From a virus (Duplodnaviria; Heunggongvirae; Uroviricota; Caudoviricetes), in IMG/VR virus record IMGVR_UViG_3300045988_152627: a stretch of 46,969 bases of DNA, one strand, 5' to 3'. Below, one piece after another: positions 21,189 to 46,867 of the stretch. Position numbers and translations under genes: made by a program. The first letter of the stretch is position 1. The number at the start of each line of letters is the position of its first letter. The notes under the pieces are model-generated. The model saw nothing but the letters and a program-made list of their open reading frames with translations, did no database searches and was not told where the DNA came from.

Positions 21189-22568
21189 CTACTTAATCAA
21201 CGGCCGGAAAGCCGCCAGCACATCATCAGATCGTCCGATTGTTGAACCACCAGGCAACGGCAACTCAAACTCAAAACGAACAGCTTTCTCCAGACTCGCC
21301 CAACTAAGGGAATCATCGTTAATGACGTGCAAATACCAGCTCTTACAGTTGAATATTGACCGCTTAATCCTGAAACCATGTACACGACACAACTGCTTCA
21401 CTTCATCATCAGAGTGAAACTTCTGGTAAAACCAGTGCCCCTTCCGGTACAACGCGGTAAAACCGTTATGATCAATAAAATAAAGCCGGCTTTTGGAACT
21501 CGCCGCTTGTGTTTGCTTCAGGACTGTTTCCAGCTCTCCACGGCTACGACCAGAAAAGAATATTGACCCACCAGCTTTACACAGGCCTTTCAGAACCGTC
21601 AGAACGGACCATTCAGCCTCGACACTATCGACCGAGTTCAAAACGCTATCGCAAATCACGTAGTCGTAACGCCCTCGCGTTTTTAAGTCGTCCACCAGCG
21701 TATCAATCATCCAGTTTGTTGCGGCCCTATCCAGAGTGTTTCCAGCGCCCTTACGGCGGAAAAGCTCGAGATCATGCAGGTTATATCCCTTTGCCCTGAG
21801 CATTCGCGCGTAGTCTCCCTGCCCCGAACCAAAATCAATTCCTCTTGGCGTCTTGGCAATGATCGGGAGGATCAACGACTCATACAGGTTTGATTTCAGG
21901 CTGCCACCATTACGCAACCGCATAAGCTGCGCATACGTCTGGATGTATGTTGTTTTCTCCAGATGAGAATACTCAAATACACCATAAGTTTTATTCAGAT
22001 AACTTTGGTATTTTTCCTTCTCAACATCAGGGATCACAAACACCGTTAGCGGTGTGCGCGTCATCTTCGCTGCTAATGCATACTGAGCACAGTGAATAAC
22101 CTCGCCAGACTGAGTAGCAACACACCCCCCCCACGGACCATACTTGATAACCAGTTCCGCTATGTTCTTTCGAACATATGCCATTTTCGCGCGCATATTG
22201 CCTGAGATCTGGCTTGCCGATACCTGAACAAAACCATGCTTATCTTCCAGACCGGACACCCTGCAACGCTCATCTCCGCTATCAAAATCCGTTCCGTTAT
22301 GCAGTTGGTTAAACCGTACTTCGTCGTATACCGTCGTTTCACAGGGCAACACATACACCGCAGCACGCGTTATTCCCAACTTACGTAGCGCCTTCGTCCT
22401 TTGGTGTCCCGCCACCAGCAAATCGCCGCGCACTATCAATGGCTTCACAAGCCCTAGCTCCCTGACGCTTTCCGCCAGCCTCGCAAGATCATCCTCACCG
22501 ATAAAACGCGGGTTATATTCCGCACCGCGTAGGTGCGTTATGTCGTAATTGAGGTGAAGCATCAGCAC
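21189..22568 (-). CDS. ParB/Srx-like domain fused to a class I SAM-dependent methyltransferase
   Basis: 459 aa; N-terminal LIVRGDLLVAGHQRTKALRKLG (ParB-like); C-terminal IDFGSGQGDYARML (motif I) and DYVICDSVLNSV; no DPPY/NPPY motif seen. Confidence 0.7.
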   Translation of the reverse strand: MLMLHLNYDITHLRGAEYNPRFIGEDDLARLAESVRELGLVKPLIVRGDLLVAGHQRTKALRKLGITRAAVYVLPCETTVYDEVRFNQLHNGTDFDSGDERCRVSGLEDKHGFVQVSASQISGNMRAKMAYVRKNIAELVIKYGPWGGCVATQSGEVIHCAQYALAAKMTRTPLTVFVIPDVEKEKYQSYLNKTYGVFEYSHLEKTTYIQTYAQLMRLRNGGSLKSNLYESLILPIIAKTPRGIDFGSGQGDYARMLRAKGYNLHDLELFRRKGAGNTLDRAATNWMIDTLVDDLKTRGRYDYVICDSVLNSVDSVEAEWSVLTVLKGLCKAGGSIFFSGRSRGELETVLKQTQAASSKSRLYFIDHNGFTALYRKGHWFYQKFHSDDEVKQLCRVHGFRIKRSIFNCKSWYLHVINDDSLSWASLEKAVRFEFELPLPGGSTIGRSDDVLAAFRPLIK

Positions 22569-23185
22569 ACCTCCCCAGCCAGCAATGCGGATACAAATCC
22601 GATATAGCTGCCATTATCATCAACATAACGAGACACCGCGCAGTCAAAACGATCCGCTTCCTCATCCGTTGCCGGGATTTTATGACCTCCAAATGACAGG
22701 TACTGAACTTTTACGCCTGATTTGGCCTCATCCTTCTCAAATGGGATATCCATACCCTCTGTGTCATCGTAGACCGCCGCACTCAATAAGTTATCCAGTT
22801 CGCGCTGAGTAAAACCAATTGAGTCCAGAGCAAAATCATCGGCCGCAAGATCTGCAAGCTCCGCGCTTAACAACTCTTCATCCCAACCAGCATTCAGCGG
22901 AATACGGTTGTCGGCCAGACGATATGCCTTCTTCTGATTCTCCGTTAGCCCTTCCAGAACAATGCAGGGAACATCATCCATCCCCAACTGAGTGGCCGCA
23001 GCAATTCGACCATGACCAGCAATTACAACGTTGTTCTCGTCTATCAGGATCGGATTAGTCCATCCGTACTCCTGTATGCTGGCAACAATCTGATCTACCT
23101 GCTCCACGGAGTGTGTGCGAGCGTTCTTTTCATAACCAATCAACACAGAAAGTGGTAAAGAAACCACATTAAGATGTTTTGTCAT
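22562..23185 (-). CDS. ParB/Srx-like nuclease-domain protein (paralogue of 19306..19896)
   Basis: 207 aa; LIDENNVVIAGHGRIAAATQLG and overall collinear similarity to the 196-aa ParB-like protein. Confidence 0.75.
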   Translation of the reverse strand: MTKHLNVVSLPLSVLIGYEKNARTHSVEQVDQIVASIQEYGWTNPILIDENNVVIAGHGRIAAATQLGMDDVPCIVLEGLTENQKKAYRLADNRIPLNAGWDEELLSAELADLAADDFALDSIGFTQRELDNLLSAAVYDDTEGMDIPFEKDEAKSGVKVQYLSFGGHKIPATDEEADRFDCAVSRYVDDNGSYIGFVSALLAGEVC

Positions 23186-26083: not shown

Positions 26084-26159
26084 TTGGTGGCCCCTACCGG
26101 ATTTGAACCGATGACCGTGCGATTATGAGTCGCCTGCTCTAACCACTGAGCTAAGGGGC
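26084..26159 (-). tRNA. tRNA with CAU anticodon, most similar to tRNA-Ile2 (ileX-type); elongator Met not excluded
   Basis: 76-nt cloverleaf GGCCCCTTAGCTCAGTGGTTAGAGCAGGCGACTCATAATCGCACGGTCATCGGTTCAAATCCGGTAGGGGCCACCA: 7-bp acceptor stem, D and T arms, CTCATAA anticodon loop, encoded CCA. Confidence 0.85.
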
Positions 26160-26329
26160 CATATTTGATCTGTTTGTCTGGTGTGGCGCCGCGCACGAAA
26201 ATCCCAGCCAATAAATTCAGGATTTTTGGGCGCGGCGGCATATCAGACAAACATGGTTGATGCGTGCGCCCATGAGAAAAGCGCATAGAATGTTGTAACT
26301 ATATATTTATATAATTATAGAAATATATA

Positions 26330-27980: not shown

Positions 27981-28126
27981 TTTACAAAGCAACAAATTAC
28001 GCGGTAATCGCTTAACGCAGTTTTACTACGTTAAATGAAACGTTACACCCAGTTACCACCTAAAACAAGGCTTTTCCATAAAAAAACCTTCACATCGTGG
28101 TTAATCGATCAATAAAAAAGCAATGT

Positions 28127-34673: not shown

Positions 34674-34847
34674 TTAACGAACTCCAATTAAAACCACGAT
34701 ATGTGGTATTAAAACCACATATCGTGAGTTTTTCAATGGGCGAAACAAAAAATAACCTTCTAATTGTGGTCCACCTCTCGTCTTACCATGTGAAAACCAC
34801 TAAATGTGGTAATGTATAAATAACCCACCATTCACGATTGATGAGAC
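34674..34847. promoter_or_regulatory. Immunity-region operator/promoter block with three CCAC-N5-GTGG-type operators
   Basis: ACCACGATATGTGGT (34693..34707), ACCACATATCGTGAG (34713..34727), ACCACTAAATGTGGT (34796..34810) between divergent repressor and Cro-like genes. Confidence 0.6.
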
Positions 34848-35504: not shown

Positions 35505-35545
35505 TACACAGCACGGCGAAAGCCGTGCATTTCTACGCTCAAAAA

Positions 35546-35560
35546 AACCACGCTTTGTGG
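35546..35560. promoter_or_regulatory. Operator-like palindrome ACCACGCTTTGTGGT overlapping a promoter for 35597..35971
   Basis: Same CCAC-N5-GTGG pattern as the immunity-region operators; followed by TTGACA and TATAAA elements and RBS AAGAGG. Confidence 0.45.
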
Positions 35561-35596
35561 TTTTGACAACATGTGAAAGTATAAAAGAGGCTACGC

Positions 35597-35971
35597 ATGG
35601 AATTACATACAGCCAATAAAAACGAAACTCTGATCACTGCTGGAATCGAAATCCAAGCGTTGAACATAGCGATTGAGTGTATGTTATGCCAAATCATTGA
35701 TAATGAGAAAGATATCGACTGGATAGAATCTATCCTTCATCTGGCATCAGAACAAAAAGTCTGCCTCAAAACGGCCTTACAATACGATGTGCCAGCGGTA
35801 TCGAAGCTGTGCCAGCCATTGATGGCATATAACAGGGCTATTACTTCTGTATGCCTCATGATTCTTGATGAAAACACCCCTCTTAGTGACCGCTCAGAAG
35901 CTGCTCTAACCCTCTCACGTAAACAGCGACAGCTAGCAAATCAACTGATATCAACGATAGCTGACCTCTGA
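35597..35971 (+). CDS. Hypothetical protein in the rex-equivalent position downstream of the repressor
   Basis: 124 aa ORF with strong RBS, followed by terminator hairpin 35976..35999. Confidence 0.45.
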   Translation: MELHTANKNETLITAGIEIQALNIAIECMLCQIIDNEKDIDWIESILHLASEQKVCLKTALQYDVPAVSKLCQPLMAYNRAITSVCLMILDENTPLSDRSEAALTLSRKQRQLANQLISTIADL

Positions 35972-36106
35972 CTGAAAGCGGGCTAACGCCCGCTTATATG
36001 ATTATAGATTTATATAATTATATAAAACGCTTTTCATCCGCCAAAAAGTTGGTTATGCTTACCTCGTTCTATAAATATAGATTTATAGAATTATATAACC
36101 AAACAC

Positions 36107-36775
36107 ATGGAGTCTCGACAAATGACTATCTCTGTAGGTATTTTCAACGGAAAAGGCGGCGTAACCAAATCAACAATTGCCCGTGCTTTAGCAGTTGCTT
36201 ATGCAAAGGCCGGCTGGAATGTATGCCTGATCGATATGGATGTGCTTAACGGAACGGTAACGCGTTGGGTACAACGCAGAATGGCCAACAATATCGAACC
36301 TGCAATCGCGGCGCAGCCGTGCGGCACGCCATCACAAGTCCAGAAAATCATCGAATCAGAAGTATACGACCTGGTTATCGTTGATGGCGGTGCCTACGCA
36401 TCTGAATCAGTACCGAAGCTCTCTGAATTTCTGGATATGGTTATTTTGCCAACCAGATTCTCTACCGATGACCTAGAAACCACCGTTAACACAGCTCACG
36501 GCATCGTTAAAAAGGGTGTACCAATCAAGAAAATTTGCATGGTGTTTTCCGGCGCGGCTGAAAACGAAGCTGACTATATTGAAGCCCAAGAGTACCTGGC
36601 TAATACGCCATACTTTGTTGTCGATAAGTACATTCCCCACAAGCCAGCTCTGAGCAAAGCTCAGGATAAGGGCTTAAGCCTCATTGAGTGCTCATACGTT
36701 GCGCCACGCAAAAAGGCAGACGACGTTATTCAGGGGATTATCAACCAGCTTGAGGCTCTGACTACTGCCGCGTAA
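36107..36775 (+). CDS. parA: ParA-family partition ATPase (small, type Ib)
   Basis: 222 aa with deviant Walker A NGKGGVTKST and later VIVDGGA motif. Confidence 0.85.
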   Translation: MESRQMTISVGIFNGKGGVTKSTIARALAVAYAKAGWNVCLIDMDVLNGTVTRWVQRRMANNIEPAIAAQPCGTPSQVQKIIESEVYDLVIVDGGAYASESVPKLSEFLDMVILPTRFSTDDLETTVNTAHGIVKKGVPIKKICMVFSGAAENEADYIEAQEYLANTPYFVVDKYIPHKPALSKAQDKGLSLIECSYVAPRKKADDVIQGIINQLEALTTAA

Positions 36776-36818
36776 TATATAATTATAGTTTTATAGATTT
36801 ATATAAGATGGGATACAC

Positions 36819-37067
36819 ATGGCCGCACCATCAAAACCACCAAAGAAGAACAGCAAAGGCGTACCGCCATCGATCGAACAACCGCAGGTTTTCGACCCGA
36901 CTGAAACGCCAACCAGAACCAAATCAGGTGGGGCACAAATGGCGTTTAACGTCGACCCTGAATTTAAACGCGAGTACAAAACGTTCGCCAGCTCAATGGA
37001 TATGTCATTGAAAGAAGTGCTGACAAAATCTTTTGAGTTACTCAAGGCTCAATACAACCAGAAGTAA
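36819..37067 (+). CDS. ParG-like ribbon-helix-helix centromere-binding protein
   Basis: 82 aa; Pro/Lys-rich tail then RHH-like MAFNVDPEFKREYKTFASSMDMSLKEVL; directly downstream of parA. Confidence 0.6.
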   Translation: MAAPSKPPKKNSKGVPPSIEQPQVFDPTETPTRTKSGGAQMAFNVDPEFKREYKTFASSMDMSLKEVLTKSFELLKAQYNQK

Positions 37068-37096
37068 GAGAAGGTGACGGCCTCCAGCGCCAACTG

Positions 37097-37279
37097 TTGG
37101 CCGTCGCGACACAACAAGGGGAATTTGTTATGTCCGAGCAACAATATACACGGTTACTAAAAACTCGTCTAATAGACCTCAAACGGCTGCAAGCTGGCCG
37201 CTTATTTGCCCTGCTATCCACCAGGCCAGAATGGGTACGTGAAGCAGTTCTGAAAGGCTTAATGCGCTCCAGCGTTTAA
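37097..37279 (+). CDS. Hypothetical small protein
   Basis: 60 aa ORF followed by terminator hairpin 37296..37311. Confidence 0.3.
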   Translation: MAVATQQGEFVMSEQQYTRLLKTRLIDLKRLQAGRLFALLSTRPEWVREAVLKGLMRSSV

Positions 37280-37295
37280 ATTCAACCATAAAAAA

Positions 37296-37311
37296 GGCCC
37301 CCGAAGGGGCC
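37296..37311. terminator. Bidirectional terminator hairpin GGCCCCCGAAGGGGCC
   Basis: Perfect GC-rich hairpin flanked by an A-run upstream and T-rich sequence on the opposite strand. Confidence 0.55.
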
Positions 37312-37877
37312 TAATCGCTACTTGCTGCTAATGTTTATCGTCACATTCAGAGCGTTATCAGTAATCTTCCAACCCTCCCCATGTGGCGTAAACAAAGCCC
37401 CAGTAACAACGATAAAAATACACATACAGTATTTTTTCATTGTATGGCCCTTACAGGCCGTTTCACGGCATCCCCACCGACGAAAACAACGCGAGAGCAA
37501 GCACGGCTGCTTGTGCTTGCATGTACGGCAACAGGAAATCCTCCCCTAAAGTCGGTGCCCGGGTGCGAATCGGCGGGAAGGTCCACAGGTATTTTACGAT
37601 TATTTTAAGATTAGTAATAGGAAATAAATTAAACGAAAAAACCAGTTTATTTTCACAAAATCAGTAACCTACCCACAATCTGTGAGTTTGCAGACACAAC
37701 AAGAACCACAATTTTTTGAAGCATAATAGTGGACTATTATTACCTTTTGGGTAAAATCAACTTGCTGCTTGTGCTTGCGTGGTTGTTTATACAACAACGT
37801 AATGCTGAAAGGACCGCGAATCCGATCAGCACGAAAGAACCGTCCTCAATAGGGCGGTTTTTTTGTTTCTTCACTCA

Positions 37878-38417
37878 TTAAAACAGTCCAAGACCTGTTA
37901 ATGGCTTCTGATAATCTCGATTATTCATATCAGCGCCGTTATCGACCCAATTTCTATATGCTTCATCGCAACAATACATTACAGCAGTTGGAGTATCTGG
38001 GATGCCGCCCCCAAATGAGAATCCCATTGAGCTAATGCTAACTCTTTCTAATGGCCTATTTCTCAATGCTTCAAACCCCTTGCTATTAAAGTAACGCAGC
38101 ATCAGAGGTAAAAGGTTATCCTCGTCCTGACTGATTGTTCCAGGGAAAAAGTAGTAACCATAACGGTTAAATTCGGGAATAAGATTTTCTACCAATGACA
38201 TGAAATTCACTGGAGTAATATTAAGGGCTGTGAAAGCACCAAAAAGGGCGTCAACTGTTAATACAGACTGCCCGTTCTCTATCTTTGTCCATGCGTTTGG
38301 TGTTTTTCCAGCAGCTTGAGCCAGTACTCCTTGATGCACACCTCTTTCTAGCCTAAGTTCTTTTATGATCATTAGGTGAATTGTTGAAAAACATGAGTTT
38401 TTTGACTGTTCAATCAT
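37878..38417 (-). CDS. XRE-type HTH domain fused to an uncharacterised C-terminal domain
   Basis: 179 aa; N-terminal HTH LAQAAGKTPNAWTKIENGQSVLTVDALF; low-GC gene flanked by AT-rich non-coding DNA. Confidence 0.5.
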   Translation of the reverse strand: MIEQSKNSCFSTIHLMIIKELRLERGVHQGVLAQAAGKTPNAWTKIENGQSVLTVDALFGAFTALNITPVNFMSLVENLIPEFNRYGYYFFPGTISQDEDNLLPLMLRYFNSKGFEALRNRPLERVSISSMGFSFGGGIPDTPTAVMYCCDEAYRNWVDNGADMNNRDYQKPLTGLGLF

Positions 38418-38554
38418 TTTTTATCCCCATATTGAATTTTTTCTTTGTTCCCAACTTTAACAAAACACCACAACTTAGGAATGTATAGTTCCTTAAATGA
38501 ATCATACATTCCCACCTTCGGTATATCAAGAAAATTAAAAGCTCGGCATTCAAA

Positions 38555-38569
38555 CCCACACTATGTGGT
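38555..38569. promoter_or_regulatory. Operator-like palindrome CCCACACTATGTGGT upstream of the antirepressor operon
   Basis: CCAC-N5-GTGG pattern 25 bp upstream of a TTGACA element at 38593..38598. Confidence 0.45.
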
Positions 38570-38864
38570 TGTCTCTGTTAAAATCCCGCCGTATTGACAT
38601 GAATGCGCCATTGGTGGACACTTTCCGAGCCGTAGCAAAATCTACGGTCGGGATTAGCCTCCTGAATAACACGATGGCGCATACCGCGTTAGCGGTTTTT
38701 TTATGCGTAGAGCACTGTTACGCCCAAATTATGGTGGGTCGTACAGGGGCGGAGAAATCCGCGCCGGTTCGTCATTGTGTCCGGTAAGGCTAACCCTGTA
38801 CGGCTCACCACCATTTGATTAGCCTCGAATGGCGGTGATAGTTCCATATATTGGAGATATCACA

Positions 38865-39056
38865 ATGACAAACTTACCCCATGACTATTACGTCAACCTC
38901 GTAAAGATCCTTCTCAAGAAAGCCTCATACGCCGATAAATTCCGCCTGGCTGAAATAATCGAGCGCGAAGCTATGCGCATCGCCAGCAACGATAACGCTG
39001 TTTCTGACGCAAAAATCTCCCTCGTAACCAAAGTAGTTATGGGAGGTGCAAAATGA
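38865..39056 (+). CDS. Hypothetical small protein, coupled to the antirepressor
   Basis: 63 aa from ATG 38865 (RBS GGAGAT); stop overlaps the antirepressor start. Confidence 0.35.
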   Translation: MTNLPHDYYVNLVKILLKKASYADKFRLAEIIEREAMRIASNDNAVSDAKISLVTKVVMGGAK

Positions 39057-40195
39057 AAACGCTTCCGACCGTTAACACCCTACAGCCTATCCTGCATAAC
39101 CAGATCCCCGTTATCACCACGGAGCTGCTTGCCAAACTATATGGCTGTAGCGTCGAATGTCTTCACAGAAATCACCACCGTAATAAGTCCCGGTTTACAG
39201 AAGGAAAACATTTCATAGTTGTAAAAGGTACAGATCTCCAAAGTTTGAAAATCTCTTTAAGAGATTTTCAAACCATCGCGAATAACGTTAGAAAGCTCAT
39301 CCTCTGGACCGAACGCGGGGCTGCACGTCACGCTAAAATGCTCGAAACCGATCAGGCATGGGATGTATTCGAACGGCTGGAAGACTGCTACTTCAACCAG
39401 AACGCGCAAACGGCCGCGACCGTAACCGTCTCACCAAACAATGCTCGTGAGGTTGTCGATACGCTCAACGCTAAACCAATGTATTACGTTAAGGTGTGCA
39501 ACAACGAGCCACTCACAACCTCAGCCGATGTTGCCCAAGCATTCAGCACCACAAACAATTCCATCGTTATGGCCATCGATGCGTTACGTATTCCTCGCAC
39601 AGCTGCGGCGCGTCACTTCTTTAAAGAACAACGACCGCTGGAAGGAAGCGACCGCGAAATAACAATCTATCGCATGACAAAAGACGGATTTACCTTGCTC
39701 ATGGAAAGTATCGACGGTCCAGGCGTGAAGGATATCAAGCTGGCCTACATTGAAGCCTTTAACGCTATCAGCAGCGTGTTAAAGGCAGAATACGAGCGAA
39801 TGCTATACAACCGACTGTATCAGGAAACAAAGATTATCCGAACGGCAACAGAACATCATCGGCTATTAACGGAACCAAACTACCGCAAGACACTAATCAA
39901 AGAATTTGACAAGGCGACGGAGAAAACTAAAGCGGCACTAAATCTACCAACAATGACTAAAGATGATGTGATATCAGCCTTACTTCTTGATCTGCTCAGA
40001 AACGCCAGAGCACTTATCAGTTTTGACGAAAACCTGAATCCTCAGCTCAAGCTACTACCACCGACAGGCAAAGTAGTCGACCAAGCAGATCACAACAGCA
40101 TACTCAGCGTACTGGATGCAAACCTGCCAGCCAGGACACTACAGGAGCTGATAAAAATATCTGCGGATAAACTGGCCGCAGGTGCAAAACCATAA
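39053..40195 (+). CDS. Phage antirepressor (KilA-N/ORF6N-like N-terminus plus Rha-like domain)
   Basis: 380 aa; N-terminal ITTELLAKLYGCS...KHFIVVKGTDL and central TSADVAQAFSTTNNSIVMAIDAL resembling the Rha motif. Confidence 0.65.
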   Translation: MKTLPTVNTLQPILHNQIPVITTELLAKLYGCSVECLHRNHHRNKSRFTEGKHFIVVKGTDLQSLKISLRDFQTIANNVRKLILWTERGAARHAKMLETDQAWDVFERLEDCYFNQNAQTAATVTVSPNNAREVVDTLNAKPMYYVKVCNNEPLTTSADVAQAFSTTNNSIVMAIDALRIPRTAAARHFFKEQRPLEGSDREITIYRMTKDGFTLLMESIDGPGVKDIKLAYIEAFNAISSVLKAEYERMLYNRLYQETKIIRTATEHHRLLTEPNYRKTLIKEFDKATEKTKAALNLPTMTKDDVISALLLDLLRNARALISFDENLNPQLKLLPPTGKVVDQADHNSILSVLDANLPARTLQELIKISADKLAAGAKP

Positions 40196-40200
40196 AACAA

Positions 40201-40219
40201 AGCGCCCGATTTGGGCGCT
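40201..40219. terminator. Bidirectional terminator between convergent genes
   Basis: Hairpin AGCGCCC-GATTT-GGGCGCT between 39053..40195 (+) and 40230..40865 (-). Confidence 0.5.
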
Positions 40220-40229
40220 TCTTCAATTC

Positions 40230-40865
40230 TTAATATTTCGGTGTAATCAGTAGCGATACATGCCCTGATTTGTCACGAGAAACGTAATACTCGCCTCTCT
40301 TAGTCTTGAACTCAGCTTTCTGCATATCTGATTTAACAATCTGCTCTAACTGCGCAATCACGGTGTCTCTTTCACTTGACGCATCCAAGACTTCAACTGC
40401 TACGGCCATAGAAAGCAAGGAATCAGAGTTAGGCTTGGATACTCGCCATAATAACTCAGAAATCTTCCCATCCTTATCAACTCTAGCCCGACCGTTAACA
40501 GATGAGTTGATGGCAAATTCAACGGTGTTGTTACCTTGTTTAACAGACTTAATTCTTATAGTGGAGGTGGCTTTTCCTGATGTAGCGATGCCTTCAAGGT
40601 CATCATTATATAACTGCTTAAACTTATCTACGGTCACACCATCAAAAGCAGCTCCGGTAGTAGCCGCAGTGTTGGAGTCTTCTGGGATCAAGGTCACAGC
40701 CGCAAGAGTATTAACAACTACAAAAGTAGCAATCCCGAGAAAGCCACTCACTAAAACAGCTTTGAACTTACCACCAGAAGACGAGGCACATTGTTTCCGA
40801 TATGCGCCACGAACTACGAAGAAACACAAAATCAGGCTAATAATAAACGCCACCAGCATCCCCAT
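40230..40865 (-). CDS. Membrane-anchored protein of unknown function
   Basis: 211 aa; two N-terminal TM helices followed by a soluble Ser/Thr-rich domain. Confidence 0.45.
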   Translation of the reverse strand: MGMLVAFIISLILCFFVVRGAYRKQCASSSGGKFKAVLVSGFLGIATFVVVNTLAAVTLIPEDSNTAATTGAAFDGVTVDKFKQLYNDDLEGIATSGKATSTIRIKSVKQGNNTVEFAINSSVNGRARVDKDGKISELLWRVSKPNSDSLLSMAVAVEVLDASSERDTVIAQLEQIVKSDMQKAEFKTKRGEYYVSRDKSGHVSLLITPKY

Positions 40866-41500
40866 AGAAATCTCCTTTTAGATATAAGGGTAAAGCAATA
40901 TCGTATTAGATCTTCCTTAAGACACAACCCCCCCTCCCCCCATACAGGGTGCCCTTTACCGGAGTTCCGGCCCCTTCTCAAAAGCATCAAAAAAAGCTCG
41001 AGATCGAGTACCGGAACTCATGCCACCAGATAGCTCCACATCGTTTCCAATGCTTCGCCGCCGTGTGCGCCCTGTGGCCCACAATCATGCCATTGGTCGT
41101 CTGATATACCTTCTTCTGCTCATTGAGCACAGGCGAGTTGTCGCACTCCTGCCTTTCTCAGACTCGACTTAGTTTAGATCGCTGTTCCTGGCTTGCGTCA
41201 GCACACTTTCCCCTTGTACGCATACCCGCGCGCCACTTCGCCCAAAAACACCGAACCCAACGAAGTAGCAAAGACAACGACGCGAGCGTGAGTCTGAAAC
41301 GTGCACCAGTAAAAAAGGGGTTGCAGGCGCAAAAAGATTTGATTATCTTTAGACGCAAGAAAGCCGCCCCAATCAAGAGGTGTCTTTTTAAATCCAGCCT
41401 ACCAAGCAAGATTTAAATTTCAGACTGAAAACCGCCCGGCAAGGCGGTTTTTGTCTTTCTGGCGCTTACATTACACCACCAGAAAACGATCCGTAAAGGA

Positions 41501-41773
41501 TCATTTGATCCCTTGTTCCAATTCTGCCGACACTTTAACCTTTTCCCATACAAGGGTTTGCAGCCTTAACAGAATCGCATCTTTATCAAGGTGTGAAAGA
41601 TCCTTAACCATATCGTCAAACGACAGAACGCGAATGGCCATCTCAATGACCCTCGGCGGCTCCCCCTTCTCATATCGCTTATATGTAGCCAACGATATCC
41701 CAAACTCTTCGGCTGCTCGCTCCTGCGTCCAGTTCATCCCACGACGCCATAATTTCAATTCGTAACCCGTCAT
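41501..41773 (-). CDS. XRE-family HTH regulator
   Basis: 90 aa; HTH WTQERAAEEFGISLATYKRYEKG; divergent from 41875..42300. Confidence 0.6.
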   Translation of the reverse strand: MTGYELKLWRRGMNWTQERAAEEFGISLATYKRYEKGEPPRVIEMAIRVLSFDDMVKDLSHLDKDAILLRLQTLVWEKVKVSAELEQGIK

Positions 41774-41874
41774 TACATCCTCTACCTTTCCCTAGATATT
41801 CAATAAATTAGACATAGCCACTCACGACAAAATAAGATGTATTAACAATCCAATCTTTAGGCTTTAGGTAAAAA

Positions 41875-42300
41875 ATGAGTTCATCTGCTTTTGTCACCGT
41901 GGTCACTGGTGTAAGTGTTTTTGTTCTAGGCCAACTCATCGTCAAAGGAGCTATTGAGCCTTACATTTCATTCAGGGAACAACTAGGGAAAATATCCAAT
42001 CTGTTATTATGTAACCAAGCAAAAATAGTGAATCCTGGCTCGAACTTAAAGCCAGAAATCATTCATGATCTAAAAGATTCCGCAGCACAGTTAATGGCAA
42101 AATATTCCACTTTACCTTTCTATATCAAAAAGTTACATATCGGCTTTCGTCTTGTTCCATCAGCCACCGAGATTCTTGGGGCAGCTCGAAATTTGAACTA
42201 TATAGCGTCAATACATGAAGGTAAGACTGGGGAGAATCCATCTAAGCATCTCGAAGAGATTGGCCATATGCTCAAAATACCAACTACCTATTCAAGCTAA
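41875..42300 (+). CDS. Hypothetical protein with N-terminal TM helix
   Basis: 141 aa; N-terminal hydrophobic helix SAFVTVVTGVSVFVLGQLIV; low-GC gene. Confidence 0.4.
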   Translation: MSSSAFVTVVTGVSVFVLGQLIVKGAIEPYISFREQLGKISNLLLCNQAKIVNPGSNLKPEIIHDLKDSAAQLMAKYSTLPFYIKKLHIGFRLVPSATEILGAARNLNYIASIHEGKTGENPSKHLEEIGHMLKIPTTYSS

Positions 42301-42366
42301 CCCAATGTAAGTTATCGGCTTGCCCCACAATAAGTTATCTATCTTCAAACGCCCCTATATTAACAC

Positions 42367-42393
42367 TCGCAAAGTGTCAAAATGACACTTTGC
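42367..42393. terminator. Bidirectional terminator, 11-bp perfect stem
   Basis: GCAAAGTGTCA-AAA-TGACACTTTGC between convergent genes 41875..42300 and 42403..42783. Confidence 0.55.
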
Positions 42394-42402
42394 GCATTGT
42401 GT

Positions 42403-42783
42403 TTACTTAACGAGGAATAAAAATGGTTTATCGTTCGGCGGTGTACTCGGGGCTGGCTCGCTTTTGCTCATACGATCAGTGTACCAGGCCAGCTCCTTGT
42501 CAAAGTAAGCCTGATTAAAATAGGCCATGAATGTGGTTTCAAATCCATAACGACCGCTAATACGCAGCATCTGATTGCCGTTCTCTGTTTCCAGATATAC
42601 CTGGGCACGTTCCTGATTCTCCTTCAGCCAAGTTAAAGCCTCGTCGCACGAGGACACACGATACTCATCATCGTAGCCGTCATCGATGCGGCTTGAAGGA
42701 GAACGGCAAATCACGCCAACAGAACCAGCCAGGATAGTTTGAATTTTAAGGAAAGCGTTTTTGCGGATTTTAATCATGCTCAT
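42403..42783 (-). CDS. Hypothetical protein
   Basis: 126 aa; start codon sits exactly at the end of promoter-leader cassette copy 3. Confidence 0.4.
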   Translation of the reverse strand: MSMIKIRKNAFLKIQTILAGSVGVICRSPSSRIDDGYDDEYRVSSCDEALTWLKENQERAQVYLETENGNQMLRISGRYGFETTFMAYFNQAYFDKELAWYTDRMSKSEPAPSTPPNDKPFLFLVK

Positions 42784-42900
42784 CGGGTTATCTCCGGTTT
42801 AACCAGGGCGGGTATCGCTCGGTTTCGGGTATAACATTAGGAAATTTTTTCCCACCTGTAAAGCACTTTTATATAAATCTATAATTATATAATTCTATGA
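42784..42900 (-). promoter_or_regulatory. Promoter-leader cassette copy 3 (TTTACA-N17-TAATGT)
   Basis: Minus-strand -35 at 42857..42862 and -10 at 42834..42839; about 88 bp identical to copy 1 from the ATG up to the -35. Confidence 0.6.
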
Positions 42901-42945
42901 GCACAAAAAAGCCCCTTTGCAACAGGGGCTTATCATTCGTTCTGA

Positions 42946-43245
42946 TCAGATGTTAAACGCTATTCGTTTTCCTGTGGGAAGCTCAACATCCAGGCTTAAT
43001 TTGCCTCCCATAGCTTCAACGTAACGCTTTAATGTCGCCAGCTTTAAATCATTTCCGCGCTGCTCCAGCTTTGTTACTGCTGGCTGACTAATACCCATCG
43101 CCTCAGCAACCTGTTTTTGTGATAACTGGAGTTCTTCACGCATCATCTGCAAGCCGACCTCAAGAATCATCTCATCTGCCATTTCTTTAATTCGCGCCTG
43201 GCTTTCAGGTGAACGGCTGGCAATCACCTCATCTAATGTTCTCAT
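42946..43245 (-). CDS. higA: HigA-type HTH antitoxin
   Basis: 99 aa; HTH LSQKQVAEAMGISQPAVTKLEQ; downstream of and overlapping the toxin gene. Confidence 0.75.
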   Translation of the reverse strand: MRTLDEVIASRSPESQARIKEMADEMILEVGLQMMREELQLSQKQVAEAMGISQPAVTKLEQRGNDLKLATLKRYVEAMGGKLSLDVELPTGKRIAFNI

Positions 43246-43598
43246 TACTTGCTCTCCAGTGTGTTCAGATGTGCTGCAAACTCATCCTCAGCTATACGCA
43301 CCAGTTTTTCATAAAACCGTTTATCGTTACTTTTGTCTCCTGCACAAAGAACGATGGCCCGGCGAATCGGATCGAACGCATAAAAGGCTCTTATCGGACG
43401 GCCAGAAAACTGAACGCGAAGCTCTTTCATATTTTTGTACCGAGAACCTTTTACGGTATCGGCATATGGCCTGGGTAACTCAGGTCCGTAAACCTGTAGC
43501 TTTTTCAAATCAGCCAAAACCTTTTCCTGAAGAGCGTCTTCTTGCTCATTTAGCCAGTCGTCAAATCGCTGGCTAAAAAGTACCGTCCACATGCTCAA
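43245..43598 (-). CDS. higB: RelE/ParE-superfamily toxin (HigB / Gp49-like)
   Basis: 117 aa; toxin-first order with a 1-bp overlap to the antitoxin; sequence pattern typical of HigB-like toxins. Confidence 0.75.
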   Translation of the reverse strand: MSMWTVLFSQRFDDWLNEQEDALQEKVLADLKKLQVYGPELPRPYADTVKGSRYKNMKELRVQFSGRPIRAFYAFDPIRRAIVLCAGDKSNDKRFYEKLVRIAEDEFAAHLNTLESK

Positions 43599-43836
43599 TC
43601 CTATAACCTGTAGTTTATATTACTAACTATATAACCTGTGGGTTATAATTTCAAGAAAAACGGGGCTATTTAACATAATGGACGTTATCGGCACCACCGG
43701 ATCACCGTTCATTGTCGGATCTAAAAAATCCGCTCAAAAGATCATGTTTTCCTGGGCGTTTTCCACCGTTTTTTATGTTGCTTATTTGTTAATGAAATCT
43801 CGTTTTCAGTTTCGCCTCATTTTCGACGCGAAAGCC

Positions 43837-44127
43837 CTATTTTTGTGACTTTACTCCTGGCATATGGACTTCCCAGCGACGAATCCCCATAGCTGCGCAA
43901 AAATCAGCCACATAATTCAATCCCGCCCATTCGCGGATACCACCACGGGCTTTTTCAATGAAAACGGCAATCCCTTTTTTATTGAGAGCAAAAAGCCGCC
44001 AGCTTTTTGTCACTTCGTCCTGGGTAGCCACAACACAAGTGAAAGCGCCCATGCGATACAGGTCCAAGAACTCTTTGCGTGTTTTACGTACAAGTTCCAT
44101 AACAAACCTCATATTTGCATGTTTCAA
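43837..44127 (-). CDS. Hypothetical protein
   Basis: 96 aa ORF overlapping the upstream gene by 4 bp. Confidence 0.35.
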   Translation of the reverse strand: MKHANMRFVMELVRKTRKEFLDLYRMGAFTCVVATQDEVTKSWRLFALNKKGIAVFIEKARGGIREWAGLNYVADFCAAMGIRRWEVHMPGVKSQK

Positions 44128-44423
44128 ACATCTGTTTTGTCATCAATGAAGATTAACCCTAACCCAGCGAAGTAACACAGCAGCGCCCAGGCTGCATACG
44201 GAATGCTGGATCTGGATGTGGACTCCTTTAACATCTGCCAATTGCGAACATTGCGACTATCTTTTAGGCCAAGTTTTTTGGCCAACTGCGAGCCGCTCAT
44301 TCCGGTCAGGCCAATGACTGCCCGAACTTCTCCACATGTAGGAGATTCCCATTCATCCGCTTTTTTTAAACAAGCCGGATTCAACATTTTTAAAACAGTA
44401 TCTTTATCCATAACCATCTCCAT
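44124..44423 (-). CDS. Hypothetical HTH-like protein with C-terminal hydrophobic helix
   Basis: 99 aa; HTH-like MSGSQLAKKLGLKDSRNVRNW and C-terminal AAWALLCYFAGLGLIFI. Confidence 0.35.
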   Translation of the reverse strand: MEMVMDKDTVLKMLNPACLKKADEWESPTCGEVRAVIGLTGMSGSQLAKKLGLKDSRNVRNWQMLKESTSRSSIPYAAWALLCYFAGLGLIFIDDKTDV

Positions 44424-44469
44424 TTATTATATCTACGATGGTAGGAAATCTTTTCCTATGTGGCAATAG

Positions 44470-45054
44470 AAATTTACTACATTGCGTATAAGACAAGTTT
44501 TCTATGTCTAATAGGAAATGATGTTTCTTATGTTTTATCGCGTTCTGATGGCTACTGTGTGCGTATTTATCGACGTTTATTGATAAGGCTCACCCCTTCC
44601 TCCTGCAAAGCCCGGCCGTAGGCCTTATTTCGGCCTTATATAAATTGATTTTGTATAGTTCGAAACGCGCCGTTTCGAAAAGGATGATCAGGCTGCACCA
44701 TGCCTCCGGCAAGTGCCGGAGGAGGTATATTTGAGCGTAGCGACTCGAACCGGCGCGAGCTTTAGCTCGCTGCAAGGGCGAACATATTCACAGGCAAAGC
44801 CTGTGTAAGTTAAATAAAGAAAGTCTTAATAAAAGAAAGTGATTTTGCATTTATTTGTTTAGTGCATCTATTATAAAAAACCATTTGCATATACATATCA
44901 AAACTGTGGATAACTTGATTAGCTGATGCCTGTAAAGGCGATATTTACGCTGTGTTCAAGTTTAGAAAAAATCAATTCAGCCTGTTTTTTGAACAGATAT
45001 TTTATTGCGACGTAGATAATCCTCCGGTAAAACCGGATTCATCATTCAGGTGGG
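44470..45054. promoter_or_regulatory. Candidate plasmid replication origin (oriR-like) downstream of repA
   Basis: Non-coding region with an AT-rich stretch (44800..44900) next to a consensus DnaA box; position relative to repA as in IncFII replicons. Confidence 0.5.
44905..44913 (-). promoter_or_regulatory. DnaA box (TTATCCACA on the minus strand)
   Basis: Plus-strand TGTGGATAA, exact match to the DnaA box consensus. Confidence 0.6.
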
Positions 45055-45903
45055 TTAATGCTGGAGTGATTTCCAGGTCTTTCTTAGCCTGTTATAACGC
45101 TGCTCAACGAGGGATCGTAAATATGCAAGGTCAGCTCCAGGATACATGCCATCAGCAAATTCCTGGCTAACCTCTCTAGTGATTTGATGACGAAGTTCGG
45201 CCTCTCCCTTTTCCCGAACAAGACGCGCAGCTCTCTCCGCTGCTTTCTGTTTTGCCTTTATCTCTCTAGCCGTCTTCCTCTGACGCCATACATTCTCCAT
45301 CTGCTCCTGAATAACAATACGCTTATAATCAGCCTCCGTTATCGCTTTTTTAAGCCGTTCGCTATTCTTCGCATTGAAGTAATTAAGTTTCTGGCTAACC
45401 GCACGTCTCCATGCTTGTTCAGTAATACCAACGGTTTCCAGAAGTTGATCACGAATCTCTATTTTCGCTGGCCAATACTGTTTATTCACCCGATCCCAGC
45501 GACGTTCATAATCAATAAAACCTAACGCTTTCAGTTGCGACAACGCCCTTGTACAGCGCGTTATAGACTTGTTCCCAGCTTCGGATACGGTAGACAGGCC
45601 GCAAAAATCAGCCAACGCCTCAGCACTGGCCAGAACCCGCTTAGAAATGATGTTTACATGGTGCAAAATCGCAGCAATCACAGCATTAATCGCCCGACGA
45701 CGATGCTCGTTTATCCGGCGTTTCCGCTCTGACGGTTGATTAACGTAGAACGCAACCTCACACGTAAGATCACGACCATTAATGCGCTGTAAAGCATCAG
45801 ATAACACCAGCGGCAGCTTGTGCGTATGGTGCTTTGGAGGCTGGAACTCCGGCGACAAATTACAAACGTAAGCTGAACGTAGAGACTGCATTGGTCTATC
45901 CAT
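45055..45903 (-). CDS. repA: Plasmid replication initiator RepA, IncFII RepA1 family
   Basis: Segment RRAINAVIAAILHH...GNKSITRCTRALSQLKALGFIDYE parallels RepA1 RRAIDALLQGL...GKLSITRATRALTFLSELGLITYQ; start taken at the internal ATG 45903 (about 282 aa); the longer ORF to 46041 overlaps the antisense RNA. Confidence 0.8.
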   Translation of the reverse strand: MDRPMQSLRSAYVCNLSPEFQPPKHHTHKLPLVLSDALQRINGRDLTCEVAFYVNQPSERKRRINEHRRRAINAVIAAILHHVNIISKRVLASAEALADFCGLSTVSEAGNKSITRCTRALSQLKALGFIDYERRWDRVNKQYWPAKIEIRDQLLETVGITEQAWRRAVSQKLNYFNAKNSERLKKAITEADYKRIVIQEQMENVWRQRKTAREIKAKQKAAERAARLVREKGEAELRHQITREVSQEFADGMYPGADLAYLRSLVEQRYNRLRKTWKSLQH

Positions 45904-45947
45904 ATGTTCGCTCTTGCGTCCACGGAAAACCAACGTATAATGGGAGT

Positions 45948-46036
45948 TGTCGAGGCGCCCATGGATTGTTGTTGGTTTTTGTTTCTTTCCGTGGATGTCG
46001 CAAGAAGCCCGCAGATTTATCTGCGGGCTTTTTGTT
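45948..46036 (+). ncRNA. CopA-like antisense RNA candidate (countertranscript to the repA leader)
   Basis: Plus-strand promoter TTGCGT-N16-TATAAT (45914..45941), stem-loop AAAACCAAC/GTTGGTTTT, and terminator hairpin AGCCCGCAGA-TTTA-TCTGCGGGCT plus T-run (46006..46036). Confidence 0.5.
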
Positions 46037-46077
46037 TCCATATCTGGTCACTTTCCAACCAGACACCCACAATCATA

Positions 46078-46092
46078 ACCACGTTACGTGGT
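46078..46092. promoter_or_regulatory. Operator-like palindrome ACCACGTTACGTGGT upstream of the repA leader
   Basis: Same CCAC-N5-GTGG pattern as the repressor operators, between the invertase stop and the repA control region. Confidence 0.4.
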
Positions 46093-46222
46093 TTTAAGAG
46101 AACTCTACCACAACACTTTCGGTCATGCACGAAGTCTCTCACTGATCGAACGATAATCCACCAGTAAAAGGATCTAAATTGGATCTCGTTTTGCGAGCAT
46201 CATACTACTGGCCTAACTCCAG

Positions 46223-46777
46223 TCAATGATTCCCAGCCGGAAACCTGCGGTAAAGCGTGGATAAGGTAACATCGAAGATAATCGCTATCCGCTTACGTGA
46301 AACACCATTCGCAATAAGCCTTCCGATCTGTTCCCATTGCTCTGGTGCCAGTTTTGAGCGACGTCCTCCTATCCTGCCGTTAGCCCTTGCCACCGCCAAT
46401 CCTGCACGCGTTCTTTCAATCATATTTTCCCGCTCCATCTCTGCGACTGCACTCAGCATCGTGTAGGCAAAGCGGCCAATTGAAGTGCTGATTTTTATCC
46501 CTTCCGTAATTGAAATAAACTCAATGTCGTTTGATAAAAAATGGTTAAGTAAATCAACAAGATGAATCAGAGAACGCCCCATTCGGTCCAGCTTCCAGAC
46601 AATAACCGTATCGCCCGGTCGTAACACCTTCAGTAGCTTATCAAGTCCTGGTCGTTTTGATTTAGCACCGGATATTTTATCTTCAAAAATCCGGTCACAT
46701 CCTGAACTCCTGAGCGCCTCCAGTTGTAATTCCAAATTCTGGTCAAAAGTTGACACCCTCGCATAACCATATTGCAT
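46223..46777 (-). CDS. Serine-recombinase DNA invertase, Gin/Cin/Pin/Hin family
   Basis: 184 aa starting MQYGYARVSTFDQNLELQ (catalytic Ser motif); C-terminal HTH GGRRSKLAPEQWEQIGRLIANGVSRKRIAIIFDVTLSTLYRR closely parallels Gin. Confidence 0.9.
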   Translation of the reverse strand: MQYGYARVSTFDQNLELQLEALRSSGCDRIFEDKISGAKSKRPGLDKLLKVLRPGDTVIVWKLDRMGRSLIHLVDLLNHFLSNDIEFISITEGIKISTSIGRFAYTMLSAVAEMERENMIERTRAGLAVARANGRIGGRRSKLAPEQWEQIGRLIANGVSRKRIAIIFDVTLSTLYRRFPAGNH

Positions 46778-46841
46778 ACTTTCTAAACCGCGATTGTTGC
46801 TAAAAGCGGGAAAAAATATCGTTCAGACGACACAGAGGCAA

Positions 46842-46867
46842 TTCGCAAAAACCTCGGTTTGCAGGAA
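46842..46867. other. gix/cix-like invertase crossover site, right copy
   Basis: TTCGCAAAAACC-TC-GGTTTGCAGGAA; inverted relative to 103..128, sharing one half-site and core; 65 bp upstream of the invertase start. Confidence 0.6.

Follow-up and report, generated by a model that had tools for sequence, protein, structure and literature searches.

We analysed a stretch of 46,969 nucleotides of viral DNA (IMG/VR virus record IMGVR_UViG_3300045988_152627, Caudoviricetes), hereafter the window, which spans nearly the whole of a ~48-kb circular myovirus-type phage-plasmid. In this element the gene for a CI-like repressor (cI) and the divergent early operon are separated by an immunity region with three palindromic operators. 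The same type of palindrome is found again at regulatory sites beyond the immunity region, as a preliminary description of the window had proposed: its occurrence upstream of repA, the gene for plasmid replication, and directly after cI is far beyond chance, and both positions are conserved. Judging from the sequence, it is likely that the immunity region, the repA site, the site after cI and, probably, a site at the antirepressor (ant) operon make up one dispersed operator set for the CI-like repressor.

Operator-like palindromes inside and outside the immunity region

The three immunity operators, O1 to O3, lie in the gap between cI and the divergent early gene and are kept in all relatives (Table 1). 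O1 spans the predicted +1 of an early-left promoter read from the sequence (-35 at 34731-34736 and -10 at 34708-34713, both as reverse complement), and O2, whose centre is 21 bp from that of O1, falls within the spacer of the same promoter. O1 and O2 are mutually reverse-complementary and appear in the scan as a 14-bp inverted repeat.

The exact core of the motif, CCAC-N5-GTGG, has six matches in the window against 0.27 expected, and none of 100 shuffled sequences reached six, a frequency that is not consistent with chance. The core relaxed by one mismatch gave 16 matches against 10.1 expected and was uninformative; therefore, a weight matrix was built from the immunity sites. This 19-bp symmetrised matrix was trained on the three immunity sites only (34693, 34714 and 34796). 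Its best matches beyond the training sites are at 46076-46094 (22.5 bits), upstream of repA, and at 35545-35563 (22.0 bits), after cI, followed by those at 38553-38571 (17.2 bits), near the ant operon, 23161 (16.7 bits), 37670 (15.0 bits) and 1295 (13.6 bits). Maximal matrix scores in shuffled sequences had a mean of 13.6 bits and a 95th percentile of 16.4 bits. As a second null, the immunity region was cut out and 1000 dinucleotide shuffles were generated. Two real sites outside the immunity region score at least 22 bits, and no such site occurred in any of the 1000 shuffles; at cut-offs of at least 17 and at least 15 bits, three and five real sites compare with shuffle means of 0.031 and 0.198, respectively. 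A matrix scan from the three immunity sites, which the preliminary description had suggested as a check of its proposal, thus retrieves the repA site and the site after cI, leaves the ant site marginal and places the one at 37672 in the chance range. Three of the four palindromes quoted in that description lie where it had put them (37672-37686, 38555-38569 and 46078-46092), and the fourth is at 35547-35561, not at 35546-35560.

Half-site centres 10 bp apart suit a dimeric helix-turn-helix (HTH) protein, and invariant arms around a free centre are the classic mark of DNA-binding proteins that act as dimers. It is hardly credible that the palindromes are instead RNA hairpins (small terminators or processing sites) or a restriction or modification target. 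The terminator-like inverted repeats in the scan do include 38556-38568 and the pair O1/O2, and several methyltransferases are encoded on the element. However, a hairpin with a stem of 5 bp and a loop of 5 nt is marginal, the sites cluster at promoters and in the gap between cI and the early genes rather than at gene 3' ends, and a modification target would not be limited to about six intergenic positions. Moreover, all sites have the same arm sequence, beyond what self-complementarity requires, which speaks for recognition of a specific sequence. The spacing does not match that of bipartite restriction sites such as those of PflMI and BstXI. A reading of the half-site as a DnaA box was rejected on inspection: AAAACCACA agrees with TTATCCACA at six of nine positions, and the T positions that are required are missing.

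Because the Escherichia coli clade is too uniform to inform, conservation was assessed in distant syntenic relatives, namely Salmonella plasmids (L002, L003), Citrobacter freundii-type contigs (L022-L024), Citrobacter amalonaticus (L019), Klebsiella aerogenes (L021), Yokenella (L014) and Serratia plasmid p2 (L004, 46.8 kb). The K. aerogenes and Yokenella loci stop short of repA. Repressor identity to that of the window is 61-66% in Salmonella, C. freundii, C. amalonaticus, K. aerogenes and Yokenella and ~35% in Serratia. In the Salmonella, C. freundii and C. amalonaticus lineages, both strong sites are embedded in divergent intergenic DNA.

The repA control region

An operator-like palindrome precedes repA in every relative whose locus reaches this gene, annotated there as replication initiation protein or plasmid replication initiator RepA (277-278 amino acids (aa)). 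The arms of the site are invariant, and its centre differs (GTAAC, GTTGT or GATGT) among E. coli, Salmonella/C. freundii and C. amalonaticus. The aligned position in Serratia reads TGACCCCGAAATGTGGTTT, a degenerate version that is the first non-training match of a matrix built from Serratia sites only. An immunity-type site is therefore confirmed at the repA control region, its position being kept at 61-66% repressor identity and its sequence degenerate at ~35%.

Directly upstream of the palindrome is a candidate extended -10 element, TGgTAGAGT, which is kept as TGnTAGAGT in E. coli, Salmonella, Citrobacter and Serratia, with the operator directly downstream. If this element serves a repA promoter, the operator would cover approximately +2 to +18, and the arrangement mirrors that of O1 at the early promoter. 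An alternative -10, TATGAT, is at 46077-46072. Whichever candidate is used, a dimer on the operator would lie over the start point or the spacer, so that repression is the expected sign. Approximately 90 nt farther upstream, at the 3' end of an invertase gene, there is a second promoter-like site, whose -10 hexamer is TATCAT in Salmonella and TAGAAT in Serratia. Between the two, from 46199 to 46110, the repA strand contains no open reading frame (ORF) that could be copB; the phage operator is found at the predicted proximal promoter instead.

Opposite the repA leader we predict a countertranscript resembling CopA. It folds into two stem-loops, the last of which is a terminator hairpin (-41.4 kcal/mol, z = -6.4), and the region is kept in relatives; Rfam has no match to its CopA-like family at repA. 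Pfam searches of the early operon recognised no other replication initiator, and it is plausible that the same replicon serves lytic amplification.

The interval between the upstream promoter-like site and the operator also contains, at 46140-46190, two GATCC sequences 11 bp apart from start to start (6 bp between them) and a third GATC. Salmonella and Serratia also have paired GATC sequences at the corresponding place in the alignment. The cluster may be a part of the replicon that is sensitive to Dam/SeqA or binds a protein.

The site after cI and the 124-aa gene

The palindrome downstream of cI was found in every lineage compared. Eight distinct sequences of the 19-mer, AAACCAC-N5-GTGGTTT, from E. 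coli, Salmonella, Citrobacter, Klebsiella and Yokenella have 14 invariant arm positions, and all five centre positions vary; the centres include GCTTT, ATTTT, GATTT, GTTTC, GTTAC and GAATC, and the downstream flank is strongly divergent. Serratia has two half-palindromic, degenerate versions at this position. With a matrix made only from the two immunity sites of the Serratia plasmid, sites upstream of its homologue of the 124-aa gene rank near the top.

A probable terminator separates cI from this site. The stem of its hairpin is kept in relatives, where the T-run is longer; that of the window is under the T-run threshold of the scan. The gene beyond the site encodes a 124-aa protein whose homologues are confined to this phage-plasmid family. 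Its AlphaFold model is a soluble four-helix bundle (mean predicted local distance difference test score, pLDDT, of 91), for which fold searches give generic helical bundles only. We see no grounds for the label "rex-like" given earlier to this gene: it has no Pfam family, its PHROG is uninformative, the model is of a soluble bundle and a hairpin lies between it and cI.

The antirepressor operon

Downstream of the third site lies a predicted isrK-C4-icd-ant operon, with a promoter read from the sequence. The -35 element and spacer of this promoter are kept in relatives, and the isrK match starts at 38629, ~7 nt past the -10. The palindrome precedes the -35 hexamer by 24 bp (22 bp if counted from the scored 19-mer), with its centre at about -67 relative to the start that the isrK match implies. 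In the E. coli clade it is kept next to three different left flanks (one with the gene for an XRE-family regulator, one in which the terminator of a ryfA module directly precedes the site, and one third context), and its centre is either ACTAT or GCTAT. An analogous sequence, AAACCACAATGCGTGATTT, is found in Yokenella and C. amalonaticus, 22 bp from the -35 hexamer TTGACA and with unrelated intervening sequence. The distance from site to -35 is 21-22 bp across unrelated contexts, in both of which hexamers resembling a -10 (TAAAAT or TAGATT) follow the site. The ant site may control a weak upstream promoter or act at a distance. Taken alone it is statistically marginal; with the comparative support it is probably functional. 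Of the operator upstream of the antirepressor operon that had been proposed earlier, the sequence and a conserved distance stand; it does not overlap the predicted core promoter, and one clade is without it.

We also weighed the reading that this site and the one at 37672 are operators of the XRE regulator (37878-38417) and resemble the immunity sites by chance. The palindrome is midway between a promoter-like site of the XRE gene (38529-38501) and the ant promoter, and with 17.2 and 15.0 bits the two sites are the weakest of the matches at issue. Yet several relatives of the E. coli clade that are missing the XRE gene retain the ant site (the two sites are 212 bp apart in L007, L009, L010 and L011), and the equivalent site in Yokenella and C. 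amalonaticus is beside a different neighbour gene. A better candidate for XRE autoregulation is the inverted repeat GGAATGTAT-N17-ATACATTCC at 38477-38511, which overlaps the promoter-like site of the XRE gene and is distinct from CCAC-N5-GTGG. We therefore consider an XRE origin of the two sites very improbable.

A scan for SOS boxes found none near the ant operon and no overall excess, so LexA control of ant is not indicated.

On the Serratia plasmid (L004, 30589-30607), a perfect palindrome, CTACAAATTGTAG, occupies the gap that separates the gene for the Rha antirepressor from a DUF2778 gene. It shares CTAC arms with the immunity operator of that plasmid, which suggests an additional, lineage-specific member of the regulon.

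Weaker matches

The site at 37672 lies between a toxin locus and a probable antisense small RNA (sRNA). It occurs only together with the ryfA module, always with identical flanks, and thus provides no independent comparative signal; as its 15.0 bits are in the chance range, the earlier proposal that it is an operator is not sustained. The module itself spans 37290-37870 and includes an RNA of the ryfA family (Rfam, 143 bits) on the minus strand in the toxin locus (37290-37586) and, on the plus strand, the probable sRNA, which is complementary to ryfA and has a promoter-like sequence at 37730-37757 and a terminator at ~37845-37868. It looks like a type I toxin-antitoxin system inserted between the par and ant genes, and some relatives are without it.

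Two other matches lie within coding sequence. An exact-core match at 1298-1310 is inside a long ORF and scores 13.6 bits, which is chance level. Three weak matches (23104, 23143 and 23161, the last with 16.7 bits) are found at the 5' end of a ParB/Srx-type gene on the minus strand (22562-23185); that at 23161-23179 overlaps codons 3-8 and is partly kept in Salmonella. The cluster from 23104 to 23179 probably reflects coding constraint.

On balance we lean towards regarding 37672-37686, 1298-1310 and 23161-23179 as functionless chance matches, with the two sites of 22 bits as the real ones, perhaps joined by the ant site. Their scores of 15.0, 13.6 and 16.7 bits are within or near the range of shuffle maxima, those at 1298 and 23161 are in long ORFs, and that at 37672 has no comparative variation. 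On the other hand, when the three strong sites are subtracted from the five that reach 15 bits, the remaining two are still modestly above expectation.

Upstream of the lysis cassette (minus strand), a gap of 190 bp contains a further element at 28085-28103, which has the conserved form AACCTTCA-N4-GTGGTTA followed by CAATAAAAAA. Its right half equals the operator half-site, and its centre varies between lineages. It is also found at L014:2261, L019:1559, L021:1358, L022:2904, L013:1646 and L002:42310. Possible roles are those of a late-promoter or antitermination element and of an operator with low affinity. Ahead of the holin-like gene lies a hairpin with a T-run (~27985-27950).

The CI-like repressor and the first early gene

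Residues 39-47 of the repressor, STLQNYEAG, are invariant in an alignment of 11 family members, in agreement with the invariant operator arms; residues 34-47 vary in Serratia only, and the linker is hypervariable. The C-terminal domain matches Peptidase_S24 with 17.9 bits, under the curated Pfam cut-off of 23.3. No serine or lysine C-terminal to the HTH is invariant in the 11-member alignment, and the position at which G-D-S-M is expected, placed by inspection, is D-E-L-M. These two observations carry the case for a missing Ser/Lys dyad, since neither BLASTP nor a profile comparison aligned the repressor usefully with E. coli LexA. No close solved structure was found for the repressor. Most likely the repressor is not self-cleaving, like CB of phage N15. 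As the family has no conserved dyad, inactivation is expected to proceed by way of an antirepressor and not by RecA-mediated self-cleavage; it probably runs through the ORF6N/Rha antirepressor encoded behind the isrK- and C4-type RNAs.

The 164-aa product of the first early-left gene is a candidate Cro- or YdaS-like protein, and the remote sites might be bound mainly by this protein and act in lytic growth, for example in shutting down or retuning repA and the 124-aa gene after induction. The operators between cI and the 164-aa gene are placed as for two antagonists that share sites, and the 164-aa family has weak HTH matches, to YdaS in three of 11 members and to P22_Cro in one. However, the HTH assignment is weak (best E 0.0013), and the AlphaFold model of the protein is poor (pLDDT 57) and unfit for a fold search. 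In phiKO2 and PY54, the only studied analogues, Cro occupies one OR site and leaves the repA operators unbound (PMC4997575). We regard Cro-type binding as the main function of the remote sites as improbable; it is, in any case, compatible with binding by the CI-like repressor.

The element and its family

Some 60 complete plasmids in PLSDB, mostly of E. coli from human and animal sources, have 96-98% identity to the window over the regions tested; they include pO145_122715_2 and a plasmid of the reference strain E. coli ATCC 25922 (NZ_CP009073, 96% identity). Yersinia phages vB_YpM_39/41/44 have 96% identity to the window. The phage vB_YpM_HQ103 was rejected as a family member, being an unrelated 32-kb phage. 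A contig scan anchored on ParA returned unrelated contigs of metagenome-assembled genomes only, and an IMG/VR scan for relatives found mostly near-identical ones. In the literature library searched, nothing turned up on this family or the three Yersinia phages, and there was no paper on the regulation of the family.

Positions of the features discussed are collected in Table 1. AT-rich repeats, TATAGATTTATA(T/G)AATTATATAA, are present at 35998-36100 and 36776-36810, on either side of parA, and are likely the centromere or operator sites of the partition system made up of the small ParA and its 82-aa partner. The start of the invertase gene is adjoined, at 46780-46860, by a hix/cix-like sequence (TTCTAAACCGCGATTGTTGC...), with tail-fibre coding sequence beyond it; the hix/cix-like sequence probably marks a boundary of an invertible, P1/Mu-type segment for host range. 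A tRNA gene (26088-26160, minus strand; Rfam tRNA, 67 bits) is located inside the phage-plasmid.

Table 1. Control sites, genes and RNAs in the window, with strand (+ or -) where assigned
Feature	Position	Strand	Details
First early-left gene, 164 aa	34179..34673	-	Divergent from cI; PHROG function unassigned; candidate Cro/YdaS-like
Early operon	ends 34673	-	Followed by 174-bp intergenic region before cI
Operator O1, ACCACGATATGTGGT	34693..34707		Exact core; 24.0 bits, highest matrix score; reference site
Operator O2, ACCACATATCGTGAG	34714..34728		One-mismatch core; 21.1 bits; reference site
Operator O3, ACCACTAAATGTGGT	34796..34810		Exact core; 21.4 bits; ~40 bp upstream of cI start
CI-like repressor gene, 218 aa	34848..35504	+	Pfam HTH_3 4.5e-11, residues 16-69; PHROG "transcriptional repressor" 9e-27
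Hairpin and T-tract after cI	35511..35534	+	GCACGGC-GAAA-GCCGTGC, then ATTTCT
Operator-like site after cI, ACCACGCTTTGTGGT	35547..35561		22.0 bits; 36-50 bp upstream of 124-aa gene
124-aa gene	35597..35971	+	No Pfam family; phrog_7632, function unassigned; followed by par genes
parA and small parB-like gene (82-aa partner)	between 124-aa gene and ryfA locus		AT-rich repeats on both sides
Weak site, CCCACAATCTGTGAG	37672..37686		15.0 bits; between ryfA-like toxin locus and probable antisense sRNA
Accessory XRE-family regulator gene, 179 aa	37878..38417	-	HTH_31 and HTH_3; divergent from ant operon
ant operator-like site, CCCACACTATGTGGT	38555..38569		Exact core; 17.2 bits
Predicted isrK-C4-icd-ant promoter	38594..38622	+	TTGACA-17-GACACT
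isrK-like RNA	38629-38702	+	Rfam RF01394, 65.7 bits, above gathering score
C4 antisense RNA	38727-38815	+	Rfam RF01695, 70.8 bits, above gathering score
ORF in icd position, 75 aa	38829-39056	+	phrog_7886, function unassigned; icd by position only
Antirepressor gene	39053-40195	+	ORF6N and Phage_pRha domains; anti-repressor PHROGs down to 1.5e-54
Toxin-antitoxin and small genes	between ant operon and repA
repA, IncFII RepA family	45055..45891	-	Pfam IncFII_repA 1.3e-43
Candidate countertranscript, CopA-like	45946..46036	+	Promoter-like TTGCGT-16-TATAAT at 45914-45941
repA operator-like site, ACCACGTTACGTGGT	46078..46092		22.5 bits, best non-training match
Candidate extended -10 of repA promoter	46110-46102	-	TGgTAGAGT; predicted start ~46095
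Upstream promoter-like site	46226-46199	-	TTGACT-16-TATGAT; 10 of 12 consensus positions (scan)
Cin/Hin-type invertase gene	46223-46777	-

Discussion

The arrangement suggests a lysogeny switch in which a CI-like HTH repressor would act through three 15-bp ACCAC-N5-GTGGT operators in the immunity region and through single sites of the same type at three further control points. Bound at 46078-46092, the repressor would block the proximal repA promoter and could also hinder transcripts from the promoter-like site at 46226-46199. Its concentration would then set plasmid replication in lysogens, and its loss would derepress repA and allow lytic amplification. The site at 35547-35561, after the cI terminator and ahead of the 124-aa gene, would have an OL-like position beside cI. 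That at 38555-38569 would probably give the repressor an input on the operon of its own antagonist.

Our confidence differs between the sites. Binding of the immunity repressor, perhaps together with an early Cro-like protein, is a good prospect at 35547 and 46078, evenly balanced at 38555 and unlikely at 37672. It is plausible that a single repressor links lysogeny with control of the antirepressor and with replication of the plasmid; each branch has an experimental precedent in CB of N15 and phiKO2 or in C1 of P1.

Several points weigh against this reading. Which protein binds, where the promoters are and what the regulatory sign is have all been inferred. At the scan threshold no consensus promoter overlaps the repA site, and the promoter proposed there depends on an extended -10 with a poor -35. 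Nor did the promoter scan find a consensus promoter that overlaps the site at 35547, which the preliminary description had placed over the promoter of the 124-aa gene. The ant site is absent from the Salmonella/C. freundii clade, and with its centre at about -67 simple promoter occlusion would be unexpected; the score of the 37672 site does not exceed shuffle maxima. Because the plasmid must replicate in lysogens, any repression of repA would have to be partial or bypassed. Finally, the repressors of all lineages share their recognition helix, so that covariation of operator and repressor specificity had no clean test.

The closest precedent for control of repA is phage N15, where the binding of CB to OL operators at the repA promoter is said to have been described by Lobocka et al. 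in 1996. In N15 and phiKO2, the OL operators bound by CB overlap with the promoter of repA, and CB reduces the copy number (Hammerl et al. 2016, PMC4997575). Like the element studied here, N15 is a phage-plasmid with a repressor that is without self-cleavage residues, has three operators between the repressor gene and an early gene and keeps its antirepressor under a small processed RNA (PMC4997575). The differences are substantial: N15 is a linear siphovirus with a multidomain RepA, whereas the present element is circular, of myovirus type, and has an IncFII-type repA with a candidate antisense RNA. The two OL operators of N15 adjoin cB, whereas here a single repA site is ~10.5 kb from cI and the site next to cI precedes the 124-aa gene, not repA. 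The operator is a 16-bp TA-N10-TA sequence there and a 15-bp ACCAC-N5-GTGGT sequence here, and binding is demonstrated for N15 and phiKO2 but inferred here.

With P1 the element shares a circular phage-plasmid form, one primary repressor with scattered operators and an antirepressor operon with a C4 RNA. The replicon under the control of P1 C1 is the lytic one, repL, rather than the plasmid repA. C1 represses transcription of the c4-icd-ant (immI) operon, in addition to the action of the C4 antisense RNA (PMC8198154), and has 22 dispersed operators (PMC8546580), compared with three or four remote sites here. Unlike the palindrome described above, the operator of C1 is a 17-mer without symmetry, and C1 itself does not belong to the HTH_3/CI type. 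Here, moreover, the ant site is ~24 bp upstream of the -35 hexamer, and overlap with the promoter is not demonstrable.

The repA control region itself resembles that of plasmid R1, in which the proximal repA promoter, PrepA, is kept ~90% off by a plasmid-encoded repressor whose dose tracks copy number (PMC5717011). The general IncFII layout has two promoters, one distal and one proximal and repressible, together with a countertranscript (PMC5717011). Here, too, a RepA of the IncFII family is preceded by upstream and proximal promoter-like sites, with a repressor site on the proximal one and a countertranscript candidate opposite the leader. In contrast to R1, there is neither copB nor any other ORF between the promoter-like sites, the repressor site matches the phage immunity operator, and the promoters and the antisense RNA, which has no Rfam CopA match, are predicted. 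We tentatively propose, as a possibility we rate somewhat short of even, that the phage repressor took over the role of CopB in an IncFII replicon. Its dose would be the transcriptional arm of copy control above a CopA-like antisense RNA, its loss, driven by the antirepressor, would turn the maintenance replicon into a lytic (runaway) one, and the ant operator would close a double-negative loop.

The layout around cI is also reminiscent of OL and OR in lambda, with operators of one type on both sides of cI, O1-O3 and the site at 35547 being ~750-850 bp apart. In lambda, operators flanking cI allow looping, and by analogy looping could occur between O1-O3 and the 35547 site. Here, however, there is a single downstream site, compared with three in lambda, and the repressor family has no conserved catalytic dyad.

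Coupling of repressor and replication, in N15, and dispersed operators that include an antirepressor operon, in P1, were already known. What differs here is an IncFII replicon with a candidate antisense RNA, an operator distance of ~10.5 kb, the operator sequence itself and the occurrence of both couplings in one uncharacterised family. The analysis yields a defined operator motif and a short list of candidate regulon members, which can be tested in a standard laboratory strain. The family matters mainly because it is common in clinical and reference E. coli, and because a phage repressor in place of CopB on an IncFII replicon would be a neat and readily tested variant. If the repressor does control repA, the lysis-lysogeny state and copy number would be mechanically linked in an IncFII-type replicon, which would explain how one replicon serves both maintenance and lytic amplification and would extend the principle known from N15 to another replication system.

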